This document shows positions 4,366 through 20,532 of a stretch of 30,952 bases of DNA, one piece after another. The translations under genes were made by a program, and so were the position numbers. Below the pieces are notes generated by a model. The model did not search any database, was not told where the DNA came from, and saw nothing but the letters and a program-made list of their open reading frames with translations. The DNA lies in the UHGV virus genome UHGV-0110025. One strand, written 5' to 3'. The stretch comes from a virus. Numbering within the stretch: position 1 is the first letter of the stretch; the number at the start of each line of letters is the position of its first letter.

Positions 4366-6588
4366 TTGGCTGTTCAATTCGCTTATCCGTGGAATGCTCC
4401 ACGATCGGCTATAGCCAGCCCATACCTTACTTATAAGCAACAGCATCGCCGCGACCGTATGTTCGCGGCGATGCTGCATGCTAAAAAGGTGCTTTCTCTC
4501 CAGCCCGACTGCGTGCGGTTAGATGTTTATCGCACTGCGGCAGTGCTGGAGCAAAATCAGGGCATTCAACGAGCCAATGCCTTTTTGATCAGCTTCTGCA
4601 AAAAGGCATTGCCGCGTCTTGAATTGGTCGCAAAAAAATACGAATGCGCGGGTATCAACAGCAAGGTATCAACCTCTGTTTTTGGAAGTCATTTTGATAC
4701 CCAGCTTATGCAATATCTGGCGTCACGCATGGTTAATATGGTCGCCCGATATAACCGCCTCCCGGATATGTCGCGCGCTGATGTTGACCTGTTGGCCGCC
4801 GATATTGCTAATTTCATTCGTGGTGAACTTGCCAACATTAATGACCACGGATTCGGCGAGCTTAAAACGCTGTACACCTGGTATAATCGTGCTGGCTTTA
4901 TTTCCCTCCAGTTCAACGTTATCCCCCCCCATTGGGATCGGGTTGCAAAAAAATATGTTGGCGCGGATGAAATCGCACCGGCTATCGCCAAGATGTTTAA
5001 CGATGGGTGGTGGCGTGGTCGTTTGCGCCGGGTTGCAGCTACGTGGCGCGAACACCTGCAAATTGCAGTCGGCAACGTCAGCAAGAAAAAAAACACCTAT
5101 GCGAGTAAAAACTGCGTGACTGACTGGCGTGAACAAAAGCGCCGAACTCGTGAATTTCTCAAAGGTCTGGATCTCGAAGACGAAGACGGCAACCGTATCA
5201 GCCTGATTGAAAAATATGATGGCTCAGTTGCTAACCCTGCGATTCGCCGCTGTGAGCTCATGACTCGCATTCGTGGGTTTGAAAACATCTGTAATGAGCT
5301 CGGTTATGTCGGTGAGTTTTACACTCTGACCGCGCCGTCGAAATATCACGCCACGACTAAAGCCGGTTACCGTAACAGCAAATGGAGCGGTGCCTGCCCG
5401 GCTGACACGCAAAACTATCTAACTGATATCTGGGCGCGTATCCGTGCCAAACTGCATCGGGAAGATGTCCGTATTTTCGGTATTCGTGTCGCCGAGCCCC
5501 ATCACGACGGTACTCCACACTGGCACATGCTGATGTTCATGCTGCCGGAAGATGTTGAATATGTTCGCTCCATCGTCCGTAAATACGCGTGGAAAGAAGA
5601 CCGCCGCGAACTGAAAAGCGATAAGGCAAAAAAAGCACGTTTCCACGCCGAGTCCATTGACCCGGAGAAAGGCAGCGCAACCGGCTATGTTGCTAAATAC
5701 ATATCAAAAAATATCGACGGTTATGCTCTCGATGGTGAAACCGATAATGAAAGCGGTGAACTGCTGAAAGAGACAGCCCCCGCCGTTTCAGCATGGGCTT
5801 CGCGCTGGCACATCCGTCAGTTTCAGTTTATCGGTGGTGCGCCGGTGACGGTTTACCGTGAGTTGCGTCGCCTCGCTGATACCGAAACCGCGCACGGACT
5901 GAGCGTTGAGTTTGCCGCCGTCCATGATGCCGCCGACGCTGGTGACTGGGCTGGTTATGTTAATGCGCAGGGTGGACCGTTTGTCCGTCGCGATGATTTA
6001 CAGGTGCGCACACTGTATGAACCACGTACCGAGCTTAATCAGTACGGTGAGGAAACGGTATGTATTAAGGGGGTCTACGATTCCTCCATAGGTGCAGGTA
6101 GCCCGATTTTAACCCGGCTCACTCAGTGGAAGATTGTTCCGAAGCATGCTGTTGATTTGGCCGTTGACCTTCAGGACGGCAAAGCCGTCCCTCGGAGTTC
6201 TGTCAATAACTGTACGGGAAGTGAAAGCGATCCACCGATACTGGATTTAACAAAACCACAGAGTCGGCGCGAAAGACGAGAGCTGACCAACCGACTCAGG
6301 AAGCAAAAACCAGCAATACGGCGAAAATTCGTCCACGGAATGGATGAGCAAAACGCAGCTATAGCGAAAACTATCGACGAGATACATCTGACAACCAGCA
6401 TCACAATCAGCCGGGGCGAAGCCCTGCACCTGATGGCAGGTGGGAAAAGCTGTTTTGATGGCAAATGGCTAAGGGGAACATCCAAAGGGGAGATATTTTC
6501 CACTGTCCCATCGAACCAAGCTAAAGCTAGTAAAATCCTCAATCGTGTTGCAGCGTTGGTAGAAGCATCAAAGTTAATAGATGATTAA
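4366..6588 (+). CDS. A: Replication initiation endonuclease gpA (rolling-circle HUH nickase).
   Basis: HUH motif HHDGTPHWHMLMF and catalytic tyrosine motif GYVAKYISKN. Size of 740 aa is close to the 761 aa of P2 A. Last early-operon gene. The C-terminal ~150 aa are lower GC and divergent. Confidence 0.9.
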   Translation: MAVQFAYPWNAPRSAIASPYLTYKQQHRRDRMFAAMLHAKKVLSLQPDCVRLDVYRTAAVLEQNQGIQRANAFLISFCKKALPRLELVAKKYECAGINSKVSTSVFGSHFDTQLMQYLASRMVNMVARYNRLPDMSRADVDLLAADIANFIRGELANINDHGFGELKTLYTWYNRAGFISLQFNVIPPHWDRVAKKYVGADEIAPAIAKMFNDGWWRGRLRRVAATWREHLQIAVGNVSKKKNTYASKNCVTDWREQKRRTREFLKGLDLEDEDGNRISLIEKYDGSVANPAIRRCELMTRIRGFENICNELGYVGEFYTLTAPSKYHATTKAGYRNSKWSGACPADTQNYLTDIWARIRAKLHREDVRIFGIRVAEPHHDGTPHWHMLMFMLPEDVEYVRSIVRKYAWKEDRRELKSDKAKKARFHAESIDPEKGSATGYVAKYISKNIDGYALDGETDNESGELLKETAPAVSAWASRWHIRQFQFIGGAPVTVYRELRRLADTETAHGLSVEFAAVHDAADAGDWAGYVNAQGGPFVRRDDLQVRTLYEPRTELNQYGEETVCIKGVYDSSIGAGSPILTRLTQWKIVPKHAVDLAVDLQDGKAVPRSSVNNCTGSESDPPILDLTKPQSRRERRELTNRLRKQKPAIRRKFVHGMDEQNAAIAKTIDEIHLTTSITISRGEALHLMAGGKSCFDGKWLRGTSKGEIFSTVPSNQAKASKILNRVAALVEASKLIDD

Positions 6589-6662
6589 TTTACATCCATA
6601 TCATGCACATACAATACCTGCATGATTCACTTTTTCTCTTCCCATCATTTGCTAATACGTGA

Positions 6663-6682
6663 TACTGTACAAATATACAGTT
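6663..6682 (+). promoter_or_regulatory. LexA (SOS) box TACTGTACAAATATACAGTT (CTGT-N8-ACAG), overlapping a putative promoter (-35 TTGCTA 6649-6654).
   Basis: Perfect CTGT-N8-ACAG palindrome with an AT-rich spacer, 20 bp upstream of a small ORF with an SD (gggaggg). Position is analogous to the LexA-controlled tum promoter of coliphage 186 at the right end downstream of gene A. Confidence 0.6.
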
Positions 6683-6702
6683 ATCATATTGGGAGGGATT
6701 TC

Positions 6703-6888
6703 ATGGTTGGGGAACATTTCAGCCGAACGCAGCAAAAGTGGGCTTGTGTGCAATTCATTGCCGAGATATCTCTGGTTGCAAACTGCAAGCCAGCAGACTT
6801 AAAGCTTGCGCTTACTCTCATTGCTGATCTGGCAAACAGCGAAAACAACGAAGAACCAGAAAATGAAGTCTTTTATAAGGCTGAATAG
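6703..6888 (+). CDS. Small SOS-controlled ORF (61 aa from the MVGEHFS start). Candidate Tum-like antirepressor or SOS-induced small protein.
   Basis: SD gggaggg sits 5 nt upstream of the ATG, immediately downstream of the LexA box. It has an acidic C-terminus. The antirepressor assignment is by position only (inference). Confidence 0.4.
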   Translation: MVGEHFSRTQQKWACVQFIAEISLVANCKPADLKLALTLIADLANSENNEEPENEVFYKAE

Positions 6889-6890
6889 GT

Positions 6891-7025
6891 TATGAAAATT
6901 AATCTCACATTGGATAAGAAACAAAAACTAGGCCGACCGGTTATTGATGCCTTTCAATGCGAATTGACCAAGAGGACACTGTCTATTTTTCCGTCAACAT
7001 GTGGTGCCGTCAAGAGAGCACTATG
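6891..7025 (+). CDS. Possible 44-aa micro-ORF (MKINLTLDKKQKLGRPVIDAFQCELTKRTLSIFPSTCGAVKRAL).
   Basis: It starts 2 nt after the preceding stop, and its stop overlaps the next ATG (ctATGAgt). Weak SD and no homology recognised. It is below the ORF-track length cutoff. Confidence 0.2.
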
Positions 7026-7148
7026 AGTGGTGCTGAGTTGATGGAGTTTGATATAGATTCAGATCGCGAGGCGCTTGATGGTATTCTCCAAGAAATCTGG
7101 GAAGACGAGCAGTTGGCGGTAGTTAATGACAGAATGTGCAGACCATAA
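7023..7148 (+). CDS. Possible 41-aa acidic micro-ORF (MSGAELMEFDIDSDREALDGILQEIWEDEQLAVVNDRMCRP). The ORF track gives a longer 63-aa version from 6957.
   Basis: ATGA-overlapped with the upstream micro-ORF. Highly acidic. Speculative. Confidence 0.2.
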   Translation: MSGAELMEFDIDSDREALDGILQEIWEDEQLAVVNDRMCRP

Positions 7149-7196
7149 CCCTATGTCTAGTTGCACGGAGGTTAGAAAAAATGCTGTCCGAATTAG

Positions 7197-7215
7197 CCCT
7201 CTCTCAGAGGGCTAT
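7197..7215. terminator. Perfect 8-bp hairpin agccctct-ctc-agagggct. It is flanked on both sides by the direct repeat aaaaatgctgt (7180-7190 and 7223-7233) and followed by a short T-run.
   Basis: Read directly from the sequence. It lies between the SOS micro-ORF cluster and the cargo operon. It could be a terminator or insulator, or a protein-binding site. Confidence 0.3.
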
Positions 7216-7271
7216 GAATTAAAAATGCTGTTTTTGATATGTTAACCTCTTAACAGTTTCATCTTTAAATC

Positions 7272-7299
7272 TTGTAAAGTAAAACTTTGCGTTTATGAT
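7272..7299 (+). promoter_or_regulatory. Candidate sigma70 promoter for the cargo operon: -35 TTGTAA (7272-7277), 16-nt spacer, -10 TATGAT (7294-7299).
   Basis: Good match to consensus in an AT-rich leader about 50 nt upstream of the 7347 start (SD aaggag). Confidence 0.3.
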
Positions 7300-7346
7300 T
7301 GATAAAAATTAAAAAAGTATGAAGAGGCTGTAAAGGAGTTTTATCA

Positions 7347-7862
7347 ATGCCTGGATTCCAAAATGCACAGCAAAATCAATTTGATGATCATGCTCCAGAA
7401 ATGGAGATAAACTTAATCGTAGATGTTGCTGAGCAGCCCGTAGCCTTTACCTATCAATATAGTGAGCAAATTAGCCACCTTGCACCGCAATGTCCGCCAG
7501 CAGAAGCGATTGAATGTGACAAAGAATGCTGGCGCTTCACTCTCAATCCGATAACGGACAGTTGCTTTTGGCCTCCAAAAAGAAGGGTTCCTGAGAGGGT
7601 TGCCTCAGACAGTCAGCAGGAGTGCTCTATGTGGGCGTTGTCTATGTATGAATCAGAGCGACAAGCTGTAGTCGCTTATTCTGGGCTTTCTAAGTCAGTG
7701 AGAAATATTAAGAAAACAATTGGAGATCACCTTGCAAGAGGCACGGTAGCTTGTGGTGATGGTAGATGTATGCCTCCAAATAGAAAAGGCCATTTTGACT
7801 TTCATCCATATTTAGATACTGAGTTCCCTGATGGCTTTCAGGTAATAAGAGCATTACCATGA
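7347..7862 (+). CDS. Cargo gene 1 (171 aa), Cys/His-rich hypothetical protein. Low GC. First gene of a two-gene operon in the P2 tin/old hotspot position.
   Basis: SD aaggag 8 nt upstream. Cysteine-rich segments (CPPAEAIECDKEC, CGDGRC, HFDFH). GC is clearly below the backbone. No recognised family. Confidence 0.6.
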   Translation: MPGFQNAQQNQFDDHAPEMEINLIVDVAEQPVAFTYQYSEQISHLAPQCPPAEAIECDKECWRFTLNPITDSCFWPPKRRVPERVASDSQQECSMWALSMYESERQAVVAYSGLSKSVRNIKKTIGDHLARGTVACGDGRCMPPNRKGHFDFHPYLDTEFPDGFQVIRALP

Positions 7863-8947
7863 TAAAATTAGATGCTAAAAGAATCACTGCACCGGAGGTC
7901 GGAGATTACTCGTGGTATTCTGACTTGGTGTATTTTGATGGACCACTGATTTGTTTATTTCGAGGAAGTGGCTATAAGGATGCTCTTTATGTTTGGCTTG
8001 ATAATTCAACCAGAGCCAACCGCTGGTGTTTAATACCTGTATCAAGGTCAACTTTAGATTCCTATCTTAATCAAAGAATGAGTCTAAGAGAAATCATACA
8101 ATCAAACGAATATGTTTATATTTGCAATCACTTTGCAGAAACAGGACGAAAAAATTATAGCCGTCTGAGCGTAGATGATTTCCCTGAGGAATATATGCCT
8201 GATGCTGACTCATATTTATATGAAGAAATATGCACCGATGACGCACTATTGTTAAAGCAAGAACGCACATCTAGCTATATGCTAGGACTGGACAACCAGT
8301 TGTTTATAAATGATTTATCAGAAATTCCAAAAATTTTCGAACAATTGTATTCTTTCCACTATGGACTTGCCCACTTGGGCAGAATTTCCATTAGAAATAC
8401 CATGCTGCGATTGATGGGTAGTTGGACTGGTGGATTCTCAGCAGTAAATATTTTCACTGGTTTAAAGAATGTCATTCCTGTCCTGCACCGCCCAGAAGTT
8501 AGCTCACTTCAATATAACTCCCCCGGACATATTGAATTGAACTTGCTTCCTGACTTGGCGCAGAGCGTTCAGGATGTATCTGTTCGTGTTGAAAATGAAT
8601 TTATTTATGACCGTTTAGAGAAAATCTATAAAAACAATTACACATACTTTAAAGATAAAGATCTATCAGGTTTTGATGAGGGTGGAGGAATTGAGTTAAG
8701 GAACATCGACTCTGAAACCACAGAAAATCTTCGTAAGCGTGTTAGAATTTTCTTTAGGTGTTTAGGTTGGAAAACCTATCAAGCGCAGTTTGATATGATC
8801 GGTGCCCATCCCTTGCAGCAGTTACGCGCAGTTATGGCGTATTACAGACGCCTGAAAACATTACGAGAATATATTGTGGCAGATAAATTATTCATTGGTC
8901 ATTCGCGAGTGCCGGTAGAGCAAATTACTGTGAATACTGAAAATTAG
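7859..8947 (+). CDS. Cargo gene 2 (362 aa), hypothetical protein, translationally coupled (ATGA overlap) to gene 1.
   Basis: Its start overlaps the stop of the upstream gene. Long low-GC ORF ending about 118 bp before cos. No recognised catalytic motif. Confidence 0.65.
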   Translation: MIKLDAKRITAPEVGDYSWYSDLVYFDGPLICLFRGSGYKDALYVWLDNSTRANRWCLIPVSRSTLDSYLNQRMSLREIIQSNEYVYICNHFAETGRKNYSRLSVDDFPEEYMPDADSYLYEEICTDDALLLKQERTSSYMLGLDNQLFINDLSEIPKIFEQLYSFHYGLAHLGRISIRNTMLRLMGSWTGGFSAVNIFTGLKNVIPVLHRPEVSSLQYNSPGHIELNLLPDLAQSVQDVSVRVENEFIYDRLEKIYKNNYTYFKDKDLSGFDEGGGIELRNIDSETTENLRKRVRIFFRCLGWKTYQAQFDMIGAHPLQQLRAVMAYYRRLKTLREYIVADKLFIGHSRVPVEQITVNTEN

Positions 8948-9064
8948 CTTTCTGCATGAGGATGCGTGAATCTGCATTATTTATTAATTCAACCCATAGA
9001 TACTGTAGGACGCAATAGGCATGGGCTTGAGACCAAAATGCAACTGCATTAAAACCGCCCCATT

Positions 9065-9200
9065 AAGCGGGTAGGCGTGGCGGGGAAAGCATTGCGCGCC
9101 AGCAGTGATGCGTAATAATAAAAATTATCCTCTGAGCGCGTCGTGATGGCGCTGTCGTGGTCGCTGCTGGTTCGTTGGTGGTCGGGTGTGTTCGTGCGCG
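9065..9200 (+). other. cos: Phage cos/packaging region. Putative 19-nt cohesive-end sequence GGCGTGGCGGGGAAAGCAT (9065-9083) followed by GC-rich terminase recognition sequence.
   Basis: Near-identity to the phage P2 left end as I recall it (GGCGAGGCGGGGAAAGCAC TGCGCGC...TCAGCGCGTCGTGACGGCAC). Here it reads ...GCATTGCGCGCC...TGAGCGCGTCGTGATGGCGC. Location between the end of the early region and portal Q matches P2. ORF-track ORFs 9049-9281 here are spurious. Confidence 0.6.
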
Positions 9201-9311
9201 TGAGACGCATCTGATGCGTGATGGTGGTGTGCATGGAAAAGCCACCAGGAGCAGCGGCTTTACAGGAGTGGCAGGATTCAAACTGCTAATTATGTTTCTA
9301 CTATGATTAAA

Positions 9312-10316
9312 CTAATTTACATGTATGTAGAGTTCACCGTCGCCAGACCAATCGGGACACTCTAAAACAAGCCCAAACTGCTTGAATATTTCATCAATGA
9401 TTATTGTTATCTCCCGAAAATCACCAAAACCTGTAATGTGCTGGTCATTAAACTTCCCATAAAGATTCTGAAAAGCAATGCCTAATTCTGATAATTGATA
9501 TCTTATCTTTGAGTTGGATAGTGTAAGGGATAGCTTTGGATCGTATTCTTTAATATTGATGTTTAGAGAATGGACATAACCCATCGCATAAGCATAAGAG
9601 TTGATGATTAGCCTGATACGTTTTTTTACTTCGAGATACATGTCATTCAGAGAAATATTACCGTACTTATAACCCCAGATGAGTTTTTCAATCTCGTCAG
9701 ATACTTCATTTACAACAGTGTCAAGATTCTCTAAAAATAAATCAATAGTTTCTTGAGGGGCAGACCCCGAAGACATGTAATTAGCGAGATATTCAGACCA
9801 TGCACGCGTGGCTGAGATAAGAAGCGCGCTACCATACTCGTTGACTGTAAAATTTTGGGCTAAGCATGTTAGTAAGTTTTTTTCATGTACGTGCACTAAT
9901 TCATGGTGAATGCGATGGATGACTGCGAGGTATCCTTCTTCTTTCAGTTTTAAGAAGCTACCATCATTGAAAAGCTCAACAAAAAAATCAATCGATAGCA
10001 CAAGGGTATATTCTTCACATAGCCCATCATTGCCAATTTTTGTTACTAACTGCCCGACGGCTGCGCCCTGTTTGCTATTGGTAAATGAACTAGGGGATTT
10101 GTGTTGGTAAGAGGATGTTACCTTTTGAAGAGCTTCACTGAAGTTATAGGAAACAATCACGCATTTTAATTTGGAGATATCAAGATTGAGATTTTTTGTT
10201 AAAGCTCGGATAGCTTCTAGTGTGAAATTACCGATATTATTTGCTTCTTGCTCAGTAGCGAAACCTTCGAGGGTTATTTTAAAATCAGTTTCCAAAATAT
10301 TAATCTCCGCGCCCAT
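9312..10316 (-). CDS. Cargo gene (334 aa), putative zinc metallopeptidase-like protein with an HExxH motif. Low GC. Inserted between cos and Q, co-oriented with the late P-Q transcript.
   Basis: Motif IHRIHHELVHVHEKN (HELVH = HExxH, extra His/Glu nearby, possible third ligand in VNEYG about 20 aa downstream). P2 has only about 100-150 bp between cos and Q, so this is an insertion. Confidence 0.6.
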   Translation of the reverse strand: MGAEINILETDFKITLEGFATEQEANNIGNFTLEAIRALTKNLNLDISKLKCVIVSYNFSEALQKVTSSYQHKSPSSFTNSKQGAAVGQLVTKIGNDGLCEEYTLVLSIDFFVELFNDGSFLKLKEEGYLAVIHRIHHELVHVHEKNLLTCLAQNFTVNEYGSALLISATRAWSEYLANYMSSGSAPQETIDLFLENLDTVVNEVSDEIEKLIWGYKYGNISLNDMYLEVKKRIRLIINSYAYAMGYVHSLNINIKEYDPKLSLTLSNSKIRYQLSELGIAFQNLYGKFNDQHITGFGDFREITIIIDEIFKQFGLVLECPDWSGDGELYIHVN

Positions 10317-10393
10317 TGTTTTGATATTCGATGCACTATAGCTTTCGCAGATTGCATCTTCAATAATGAGCGCAGAGATTGTGGCGGCCTAAG

Positions 10394-11440
10394 TTATTCT
10401 GGGTTGTCGAGGGTGTACTCTTTGAACCTGATGACCTCCATACCGAGCCAGTCGTTTACCTCCCTGAACCTATCCTGCAGGGGTGACAGCTCATTACGCA
10501 CAAATACCTTTGCCACCTTCTCAACGTCACCGAGTGAACCGATATTCTCGGGCTTGCCGCCCATGAGCTGGAACGGTACGCGGTGCGCGTCCATCAGATC
10601 GGCGGCACTGGCCTTCTTGATGTTGAAAAAGTCATCCTTTGTGGCGACCTCGCTCAGTGGCACGATTTTGATGCCGTCCGGTTTTCCGCCGGGAGCGTAG
10701 AAAAACAGGTTCTTAAAGTTGCCGAGCCCTTTTGAGTTGCGCATCGCCTCGCGCAGCGATTCGACGTCGGTCGCGCTCTGCGCCGGGTCAGTCACATACA
10801 TGATGTAACCCGCGTGCGCGCCGTTCTGATAATACTTGCGGCGGAACAGCGTCGCGGATTCATTCAGCCAGGCGGAATTTAGCGCGCTGAGATATTCGGG
10901 CAGGCCGTAAATCTCCTGATTAATGTCGGGCTCCAGCAGGTGAAACACGGTATCAGGCGCGAACTCGTGCGGCTGGGTGAAGTTTTCCACAAACCAGAAA
11001 ATCGAATCGTCGACTCCGCGTCGGGTGTATTTGGCTGGCGAGGCCAGCAGTTTGATTAACTGGCCGGTGACGCTGTGGCGCTGCTCAAGAAAGGCGTTAC
11101 CGAACACCAGATAATCGAGCGCAAAGCGGCTGAAATCCTGACGGGATAACAACGGGTGCGGAATGTAGGTGCTCGCGAGCACGTTACGCTTAACATAAAT
11201 TGGCGAGCTGTGATGCACGGCAGAGCGCAGGCTCTTTGCCAGCCCTGAGAAGCTGACCGGCGGCTCGTACCATTTGCCGTTACTGATGCACTCGACGTAA
11301 TCCAGAATGTCGCGCTTATCGAGTACCGGCACCGGCTCGCCGAAGGTGAACGCTGTCGTTTTTGGCGGTGCGCTGGCGGTCAGTTGTTGTGGTTTGCTGG
11401 CCTTTTGTGCGTTGGCTTTACGGGATTTTTGTTTACCCAT
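10394..11440 (-). CDS. Q: Portal protein gpQ.
   Basis: AFTFGEPVPVLDKRDILDYVECISNGKWYEPPVSFSGLAKSLRSAVHHSSPIYVKRNVL closely matches P2 Q. It is adjacent to cos. Confidence 0.92.
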   Translation of the reverse strand: MGKQKSRKANAQKASKPQQLTASAPPKTTAFTFGEPVPVLDKRDILDYVECISNGKWYEPPVSFSGLAKSLRSAVHHSSPIYVKRNVLASTYIPHPLLSRQDFSRFALDYLVFGNAFLEQRHSVTGQLIKLLASPAKYTRRGVDDSIFWFVENFTQPHEFAPDTVFHLLEPDINQEIYGLPEYLSALNSAWLNESATLFRRKYYQNGAHAGYIMYVTDPAQSATDVESLREAMRNSKGLGNFKNLFFYAPGGKPDGIKIVPLSEVATKDDFFNIKKASAADLMDAHRVPFQLMGGKPENIGSLGDVEKVAKVFVRNELSPLQDRFREVNDWLGMEVIRFKEYTLDNPE

Positions 11441-19171: not shown

Positions 19172-19200
19172 AGGCTGGATAAACACCAGCCTTGATTTTA
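19172..19200. terminator. Bidirectional rho-independent terminator-like hairpin (7-bp stem aggctgg / ccagcct, 7-nt loop) with a T-rich tail, between convergent gpS (+) and the HIT gene (-).
   Basis: Inverted repeat read directly from the sequence. T-rich on the plus-strand side. It lies between the two stop codons. Confidence 0.4.
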
Positions 19201-19842
19201 TAGTTTGAAATCTGCGTAATTATCAATAACCTCTAGAACACCGCTGATATTGTTATCTCTGCGCCAATTCCAATTGCCATGTATCAAATTTGCATTAGAA
19301 TAAAGATATCTAAGGAACTGAGATGGTAAGAGTGGTTTGTTGCATAAAAATTCATCATAACTATTACTCATATACCACACATATCCATTTTTAATGTCAA
19401 AACTTAAATTCTCACCTTCAATTTTCTTAAAGTTAATTTCTTTATTTAGAGCATTTTCAAACTCTTGTGTATAATAAACACAGTGTATATGAGCGTGAGA
19501 AATGCACCCTCCTGAACGATCTATATTTTCACCTGCTCCGCTTTCAAAGAAAATTAGAGATCTACCAGATTGGTGGATTATAAATTCATTAAGTTCTCGC
19601 AGAATCTCCTTGCCATTACTCCGGGTATCTCGATCAAGAGCAGCAAAGGAGTTGATATGCCGCTTAGGAATCAGCATCACATGCGAATTATTTAGCGGGC
19701 CAATACTAGGTACAATTAGAAAATCATTTGTTTCTGCAATGATATTTTTCTTGTCATTTACGATTTCATCGTATCCTTTGATAAGGCTAATGCCATTTAT
19801 TTCATCGCATATTCCACAGAACGAATTACAAGAATTATTCAC
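19198..19842 (-). CDS. HIT-family (histidine triad) nucleotide hydrolase/transferase-like protein, 214 aa, GTG start with strong SD. Low-GC cargo.
   Basis: Histidine-triad motif GGCISHAHIHCV (HxHxHxx) with upstream HINT-like elements (CGICDE..., FLIVPSIGPLNNSHVMLIPKRH). SD aggaga 8 nt upstream of GTG. Start overlaps the stop of the upstream membrane-protein gene by 8 nt. Confidence 0.7.
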   Translation of the reverse strand: MNNSCNSFCGICDEINGISLIKGYDEIVNDKKNIIAETNDFLIVPSIGPLNNSHVMLIPKRHINSFAALDRDTRSNGKEILRELNEFIIHQSGRSLIFFESGAGENIDRSGGCISHAHIHCVYYTQEFENALNKEINFKKIEGENLSFDIKNGYVWYMSNSYDEFLCNKPLLPSQFLRYLYSNANLIHGNWNWRRDNNISGVLEVIDNYADFKL

Positions 19843-20356
19843 GTTTATTGTCTCCTGGTTTTTTAGGGAGCAATTTTTCAGCCCAAGATGCGAGTCGGCT
19901 TAGAACTAAGTCTGAAAAATATCCTAATATAAAACAAATCGAGAATGCAATTTTGGTCTTACCATGCCCTTTAATGGAGGATACAAACGTATCCGGAGAT
20001 AATATCGTATAAGAACAAAAAGCCACTAAAGCAGCTAAGAACGGAATAAAAATCCTCCAGTAGAACTTATGGGATTCCCAAGGAAAATTATACTGATTGT
20101 TTTTCCCTCTAGCAGTTACTCTATAAAACCATTTTGCATTATACACCCACCCTCCAAAAAAACCGCCAAGAATAGAAAACAAAGATATTTTATTATTATA
20201 TGACAGCTCAAAAACAAATTGGAAAAGAAAGGCGAGAATGCAACCTATTACAAAAAGAACTATTAAATAAGCAAATTCGAATTTTATTTGTTCACAATCG
20301 TTATTAAAATAAGGCACAACCTCATCATCGCCTAAGGTTTTTTTTCTTTCAGTCAT
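19835..20356 (-). CDS. Small integral membrane protein (about 173 aa from the MTERKK start, four predicted TM helices). First gene of the 2-gene low-GC operon with the HIT gene.
   Basis: Hydrophobic helices (FAYLIVLFVIGCILAFLFQFVF, ISLFSILGGFFGGWVY, WRIFIPFLAALVAFCSYTIL, IAFSICFILGYFSDLVL). SD gaaggtg upstream of the 20356 start. The ORF-track TTG start at 20407 is less likely. Confidence 0.55.
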   Translation of the reverse strand: MTERKKTLGDDEVVPYFNNDCEQIKFEFAYLIVLFVIGCILAFLFQFVFELSYNNKISLFSILGGFFGGWVYNAKWFYRVTARGKNNQYNFPWESHKFYWRIFIPFLAALVAFCSYTILSPDTFVSSIKGHGKTKIAFSICFILGYFSDLVLSRLASWAEKLLPKKPGDNKRE

Positions 20357-20532
20357 TTGCCAAACACCTTCATTTTTTACTGTGAGCCAGGGTAATTGCA
20401 TATTCAACTTGGCTATTCTAATTAATTCTCACAAGATTTCATAGATGTTGAGTAGACCTCTCAGAAGTTGTTTCATTCCTCACAGAATCCATCTCGATTG
20501 CCACTAATCTTGCCGGGCGTCATCCTTCCCAT

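Follow-up and report, generated by a model that had tools for sequence, protein, structure and literature searches.

The stretch of DNA analysed here, 30,952 nucleotides of the virus genome UHGV-0110025 and referred to below as the window, carries between its phage replication gene and its portal gene a pair of co-oriented genes: A (open reading frame (ORF) 7347..7862, + strand, 171 amino acids) and, downstream of it, B (ORF 7859..8947, + strand, 362 amino acids). By sequence comparison the pair is a diverged allele of PD-T4-10, resident in a 186/P2-type Escherichia coli prophage, the function of the system having been shown for its orthologue in E. coli strain ECOR65. The system itself is already known. 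The features of the locus are as follows.

6958..9037, + strand: variable cassette, delimited by blastn against phage vB_EcoM-613R3 and the SF-468 prophage
9074..9092, no strand assigned: cos-like 19-mer GGCGTGGCGGGGAAAGCAT, of presumed identity; homology to the backbone is back from 9038
7240..7255, no strand assigned: palindrome, possible operator, from the sequence and conserved in orthologous loci
7272..7299, + strand: sigma-70-like promoter candidate, 9 of 12 positions in the scan, hexamers conserved
7333..7338, + strand: Shine-Dalgarno sequence AAGGAG of gene A, from the sequence
7347..7862, + strand: PD-T4-10A, antitoxin, 171 amino acids (PADLOC PDLC04023; role from PMC9519451)
7859..8947, + strand: PD-T4-10B, toxin, 362 amino acids (PADLOC PDLC04024; role from PMC9519451)

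Gene layout and identity of the pair

The stop codon of A and the start codon of B overlap in the sequence ATGA (7859-7862), and the guanine-plus-cytosine (GC) fraction is 0.37-0.43 over 6500-10500 as against 0.52-0.62 in the structural genes. Because the upstream flank encodes a Phage_GPA protein (4366..6588, E 4e-131) and the other flank a Phage_portal protein (10394..11440, - strand), the pair can be placed in the slot that lies between replication gene A of P2 and cos/portal, and that is occupied in P2 itself by tin and old. The 19-mer GGCGTGGCGGGGAAAGCAT at 9074-9092 we take to be the 186/P2 cohesive end and the right edge of this hotspot. An integrase and a 186-type CI repressor are encoded at the left end of the window. 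An earlier account of the locus, made from the letters alone (the sequence-only reading), had described a translationally coupled, low-GC gene pair with a strong Shine-Dalgarno sequence in the tin/old position of P2, and that description holds.

The Shine-Dalgarno sequence AAGGAG (7333-7338) stands 8 nucleotides ahead of the ATG of A at 7347, and a promoter scan yields the + strand candidate TTGTAA-16-TATGAT (7272-7299), in which 9 of 12 consensus positions are matched. Sites of this quality are not above chance, with 11 observed and 12.1 expected from shuffled sequence, so that the description of this promoter as near-consensus in the sequence-only reading was overstated. Both hexamers are nonetheless kept in the orthologous loci of E. 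coli and Raoultella even though the region overall is only about 75-80% identical. A perfect palindrome, TGTTAA-CCTC-TTAACA (7240-7255), lies 17 nucleotides upstream of the -35 hexamer of the operon and could be an operator; its arms are kept in an E. coli copy (L001) and have one mismatch in a Raoultella copy (L003). When PD-T4-10 of ECOR65 was cloned, about 100 nucleotides of upstream DNA sufficed for native expression (genes 196254-197857, clone 196153-198064; PMC9519451), and the promoter candidate falls within the equivalent stretch of the window.

The identity of the pair comes from profile matches. A matches the PADLOC family PD-T4-10_A (PDLC04023) with an E value of 6.5e-69 and 228 bits, aligning residues 28-171 to profile positions 4-148 of 148, and B matches PD-T4-10_B (PDLC04024) with an E value of 3.3e-169 and 561 bits over profile positions 1-351 of 353; PADLOC gives no other defence family for either protein, Old included. 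Vassallo et al. (2022) recovered PD-T4-10 from E. coli ECOR65 by functional selection, as two overlapping ORFs of no predicted function (PMC9519451). For that orthologue, B is toxic and is fully neutralised by A on co-expression, A could not be deleted, deletion of B led to loss of T4 resistance, and the system confers abortive-infection (Abi) protection, strong against T-even phages, both in the native strain and when cloned (PMC9519451). The small protein of the pair is accordingly assigned as the antitoxin and the large one as the toxin, roles that the sequence-only reading had guessed wrongly. As late as 2024 a survey entered PD-T4-10 as a toxin-antitoxin system without known function, and our literature search for PD-T4-10 or DUF6575 found no mechanistic follow-up.

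The likeness to the ECOR65 system includes the A-then-B order, the 4-base overlap of the ORFs, the full-length agreement of both proteins with the family models, the protein sizes (171 amino acids for A; 362 for B in the window and 363 in ECOR65), and the location in a P2-type hotspot behind a replication endonuclease and a DinI remnant. The window copy differs in its divergence (76% DNA identity to the copies in complete E. coli genomes, the proteins A and B being 67% and 88% identical to the E. coli type), in an allele lineage common to Klebsiella and Raoultella, and in a prophage backbone that is 186-like with a CI repressor.

The tin and old genes of P2 are low in GC, are expressed in the lysogen and exclude other phages, tin acting against T-even phages. 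The window pair shares with them the slot between P2 gene A and cos, and the low GC content, but tin and old encode single proteins rather than a toxin-antitoxin pair, and there is no sequence relationship: neither PADLOC nor Pfam finds similarity to Old (an ATPase plus Toprim nuclease) or to Tin in A or B. Four systems from the 2022 selection map to the tin/old locus, with the P2 replication endonuclease on one side and the portal gene on the other (PMC9519451).

Exchange and divergence of the cassette

Pairwise blastn comparison of the window with phage vB_EcoM-613R3 (ON470592) and with the prophage of E. coli SF-468 shows homology that stops at 6957 and resumes at 9038, the flanks being 92-93% identical on the left and 99.4-99.7% on the right; from these breakpoints the cassette is defined as 6958-9037. 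A core of roughly 7231-9100 is common to the E. coli and Raoultella copies. The SF-468 prophage and vB_EcoM-613R3 have a 70-amino-acid ORF and a 313-amino-acid minus-strand ORF in the slot instead, and the AST217 prophage has small hypothetical ORFs and a gene for a DUF2188 protein. Of 5426 complete E. coli genomes, 1654 contain the portal and terminase DNA of the window (at 1909 places, with an identity of at least 99% at 34), but only 13 contain the pair, each time with DNA about 76% identical to that of the window. The pair is swappable cargo of the P2 hotspot, present or absent at the same site among close prophages, and the sequence-only reading was right to regard it as variable. The finding mainly confirms that in prophages of the P2/186 type the interval from gene A to cos is a site of interchangeable defence cassettes.

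All of the E. coli copies examined are located behind a replication endonuclease gene, a small ORF and a DinI remnant, and the orthologous operon measures 1604 bp, the length given by the published coordinates of PD-T4-10 in ECOR65. The exact proteins of the window occur in draft E. coli assemblies, and their 90% clusters include Klebsiella and Raoultella members; a search at megablast sensitivity found no copy of the pair among the phages of INPHARED. As to the left end of the cassette, the 63-amino-acid ORF at 6957-7148 is a DinI-like remnant (phrog_189, E 5.8e-7; Pfam DinI, E 0.009), and the breakpoint at 6957 falls within the DinI gene of the related backbone. Since the E. coli PD-T4-10 loci have a frameshifted DinI pseudogene at the equivalent position, this remnant appears to move with the cassette.

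Both genes are under purifying selection, with ratios of nonsynonymous to synonymous divergence (dN/dS) of 0.13-0.18 for A and 0.03 for B. A has evolved about three times faster, with a dN to the E. coli type of 0.219 as compared to 0.078 for B, and its first 45 residues are the fastest-evolving part. Comparison of 7347-8947 with the copy in Raoultella lignicola (L003) gives a dS of 0.41 for A and 1.40 for B, and because these values differ so sharply the sequences suggest a recombination breakpoint inside the operon, and with it a shuffling of antitoxin and toxin alleles.

The two proteins and their families

An AlphaFold2 model of B, built from 57 homologues, has a predicted local distance difference test score (pLDDT) of 91.3 and a predicted template modelling score (pTM) of 0.89. 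As modelled, B consists of an N-domain (approximately residues 1-147) that is beta-rich, acidic (isoelectric point (pI) 4.6) and in part a match to DUF6575, and a C-domain (approximately residues 148-351) that is mainly helical with one beta-hairpin, basic (pI 8.6) and an orphan. The window protein scores 21.5 bits against DUF6575 (PF20215), short of the 26.6-bit cut-off, aligning residues 43-116 to profile positions 39-115 of 218, and the same family is matched by 51 of the 57 homologues at an E value of 1 or below (best 3.9e-8); it is the only family that the Pfam scan of these homologues finds, and there is none for the C-domain. Thus the N-domain resembles DUF6575 over about residues 20-120, and RefSeq names the E. 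coli orthologue a 'DUF6575 domain-containing protein', but the C-terminal 200 amino acids lie outside any Pfam model.

Structural comparison adds little to this. A Foldseek search of the PDB with the B model returns nothing at an E value of 0.001 or below, a profile of the B family has no match among PDB sequences, and the BFVD matches comprise only a DUF6575 protein and a 113-amino-acid phage protein that corresponds to the N-domain alone (template modelling score 0.79). Of the profile and structure searches proposed in the sequence-only reading, PADLOC assigned the two proteins to PD-T4-10 and Foldseek gave nothing informative for B. No membership of B in a toxin superfamily was found among RelE, MazF, VapC, HipA, Doc, GNAT, HEPN, ART and others, and a search by eye for the HEPN Rx4-6H motif found none.

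Conservation in the C-domain is concentrated in five motifs, QLYSFHYGL, WTGGFSAVNxFTGL, PxxHR, YNSPGHI and LRxxxAYYRRL, which hold most of its conserved residues. H210, S221, P222, G223, R323, R330 and R331 of B are invariant, and R211 and H224 are conserved in at least 90% of members. The maximum 19-residue Kyte-Doolittle mean is 1.13, and neither protein has a transmembrane segment; a membrane-acting toxin is unlikely given the lack of any hydrophobic segment. Because the C-domain combines conserved His, Arg, Ser and Tyr residues with basic charge and an absence of hydrophobic segments, our guess is that B acts on a soluble target, for example nucleic acid or translation, rather than on the membrane.

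Distant homologues of B, at 41% identity, are found outside any prophage at four Pseudomonas syringae loci (L025-L028). They occupy a small variable island that follows mutY/yggX-like genes, beside a gene for a RES-domain protein and, in one strain, a transposase. A was not called by the annotators of these records, who annotated a 154-amino-acid ORF on the opposite strand instead; another Pseudomonas locus (L007) has an A-like ORF upstream of B.

A is acidic (pI 5.2), with a conserved core of about 140 amino acids behind a fast-evolving N-terminal extension of about 30-35. A word-based search finds few relatives of A, whereas an exhaustive profile search reveals a family of 1,562 clusters at 50% identity, 1,083 of them at an E value of 1e-10 or below, nearly all of whose members are stand-alone proteins of 135-155 amino acids. 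Across 147 representatives C93, S99, G139 and H149 are invariant, and conservation reaches 90% or more at Y38, C49, P50, R63, F74, P76, P82, R84, L98, G126, A130, G148 and F150. Pfam detects no domain in the window protein or in the 147 representatives, including helix-turn-helix (HTH), ribbon-helix-helix (RHH) and AbrB domains, and neither a PDB sequence nor an enzyme family is matched. The AlphaFold2 model of A, from a shallow alignment of 14 sequences, has a pLDDT of 37.8 and is unusable.

The sequence-only reading had drawn attention to A as rich in cysteine and histidine, and as a possible metal-binding sensor. The composition is as described, with 7 Cys and 5 His in 171 amino acids, but of these residues the family as a whole keeps only C49, C93 and H149, and with two Cys and one His the sensor idea fares poorly. 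A zinc finger or metal sensor is unsupported, the other five cysteines (C57, C61, C73, C136 and C141) being specific to the Enterobacterales and not conserved outside them.

The association of A with the N-domain of B is evident when the loci are compared using hidden Markov models (HMMs). A immediately precedes B at all 16 genome loci, which come from several phyla, including Pseudomonas, Stenotrophomonas, Janthinobacterium, Opitutaceae, Caldilinea and Desulfobacterales, and in all 18 viral-contig loci that have a full-length B. At five further loci retrieved by way of A (L031-L035), the downstream gene always encodes the DUF6575 N-domain. The partner is a full B in L031, and an N-domain-only protein of 133 amino acids in L032 and of 172 in L034; in L033 and L035 the partner gene is cut by the end of the contig. 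In L032 (1410-2524) A is fused to an N-terminal DUF3127 domain (PF11325), and the DUF3127-bearing A with its N-domain-only partner is a shorter variant of the module. A PD-T4-10A-like protein with an N-terminal DUF3127 domain (PF11325) is also encoded at 354-1055 of L035.

No C-domain lacking an N-domain turned up among the genome and viral loci examined. From this co-occurrence across loci we infer that A and the N-domain form a conserved interacting core, to which the C-domain would be an added effector. Stand-alone N-domain proteins without A are present at six viral loci, of which four belong to large contigs (250-670 kb). These DUF6575 proteins, of about 120-145 amino acids, are from IMG/VR (L055-L060), the large contigs being L055, L058, L059 and L060. 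That they are decoys or regulators of PD-T4-10-like systems is pure speculation.

Mode of action, alternatives and neighbouring cargo

Taking these observations together, we consider it very probable that the pair is an orthologue of PD-T4-10 and, in its general mode, a toxin-antitoxin Abi system of the protein-protein (type II-like) kind, carried as interchangeable cargo of the hotspot. The operon would probably be transcribed in the lysogen from its own promoter, and A and B would be translated as a coupled unit and so produced together. A may keep B inactive by docking on the DUF6575 N-domain, with the basic helical C-domain as the putative toxic effector. Infection by a phage of the T-even type would then be the presumed trigger for loss of neutralisation, either through depletion of A once phage-imposed shut-off of host gene expression sets in, or through a phage product that acts on A or on the N-domain, and the freed B would halt the cell before progeny phage form.

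The pair has much in common with the type II-like Abi systems PD-T4-9 and PD-lambda-2, which came from the same screen as PD-T4-10: the toxin gene follows the antitoxin gene and overlaps it, and, as shown for PD-T4-10 of ECOR65, the toxin by itself is toxic but is neutralised on co-expression, and the defence is of the Abi type (PMC9519451). It departs from them in that its antitoxin is a conserved globular domain without a recognisable DNA-binding domain, its toxin has no similarity to a known toxin fold or family, and there is no chaperone or third component. A DNA-binding, autoregulating antitoxin of the classical type II sort was not found, and nothing ties the palindrome at 7240-7255 to A. 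A type III system, with an RNA antitoxin, is argued against by the lack of any Rfam match at threshold and of any tandem or direct repeat array across 6400-10500.

The role of A admits another interpretation, namely that it does not bind passively but has a catalytic or metal-dependent activity that would control B, either as an enzyme acting to modify or reverse B or its product (as in type IV and VII systems) or as the system's sensor of phage. The great size of its family (1,562 clusters) and the fixed length of about 140 amino acids would suit such a role, as would the invariance of C93, S99, G139 and H149, the conservation at 90% or more of C49, P50, R63, R84, G126 and G148, and the lack of a detectable HTH, RHH or AbrB domain. 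However, no enzyme family or solved structure is matched, three conserved potential ligands are fewer than the four of a canonical zinc site, and the published neutralisation on co-expression fits direct binding equally well, such that we judge this unlikely. The pair might also serve chiefly as an addiction or stabilisation module of the prophage, or as an excluder of other mobile elements, with little or no protection against T-even phages from this particular allele. Carriage of a toxin-antitoxin pair on a mobile element accords with such a role; A, whose N-terminus evolves fast, is down to 67% identity, and protection is known from the orthologue alone. Yet the orthologue gives protection in its native strain as well as when cloned, the slot is known as a hotspot for defence genes, and the pair is rare, swapped cargo that is not fixed in the prophage lineage, all of which leaves this role improbable.

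The sequence-only reading had itself proposed an undescribed defence or Abi system, in which a possible metal-binding sensor would be paired with an effector that belongs to no recognised family. Its assignment to defence and abortive infection stands, and the general databases are in keeping with novelty: Pfam, NCBIfam and PHROGs have no family for A and nothing beyond the sub-threshold DUF6575 match for B, and both proteins are publicly annotated as 'hypothetical protein'. That the system is undescribed is nevertheless refuted by the full-length PADLOC matches to PD-T4-10_A and PD-T4-10_B together with the published functional characterisation of PD-T4-10 (PMC9519451), and we give this proposal virtually no credence.

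For the PD-T4-10 assignment that we favour, the value of the present analysis is mechanistic, in that a validated Abi system now has a confident two-domain model of its toxin, without an informative structural analogue. The short list of invariant residues in A and B provides testable handles, the evidence points to a very large antitoxin family invariably linked to the DUF6575 N-domain, and the window offers a natural second allele, its A 67% identical, that is usable for mapping specificity. A broader proposal can be put forward only tentatively, and we hold it with more doubt than confidence: that the C-domain is a toxin whose fold and activity are new to solved structures, and that A and the DUF6575 N-domain constitute a widespread two-part regulatory module (more than 1,000 clusters in many phyla) that works with or without the C-domain and has been captured by large lytic phages as stand-alone N-domains, perhaps as decoys.

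Two other low-GC segments of the window contain genes that may be cargo. A 334-amino-acid ORF at 9312-10316 (- strand), low in GC and situated between cos and the portal gene, matches phrog_11743 (unknown function; E 2.8e-157); it has no PADLOC or Pfam match and includes an HExxH-like stretch, HHELVHVHE. The SF-468 prophage and phage vB_EcoM-613R3 have this gene too, whereas in E. coli 13C1079T the slot contains a gene for an AIPR (abortive infection) protein, and in strain 200088 one for a 208-amino-acid hypothetical protein. We regard this ORF as a candidate for a second piece of defence cargo, on the far side of cos from the pair.

The second low-GC island, at 19198-20407 (- strand), has a GC fraction of 0.33-0.38 and is flanked by ORFs resembling tail gene S and baseplate gene V. 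Its two overlapping genes encode a 214-amino-acid protein similar to HIT, DcpS_C and CwfJ_C_1 (E approximately 1e-6) and a 190-amino-acid protein of unknown function, neither of which has a PADLOC match, and the island is possibly an uncharacterised moron or defence pair. The gene for the HIT protein and an adjacent hypothetical ORF are also present in the related E. coli prophages AST217 and SF-468.

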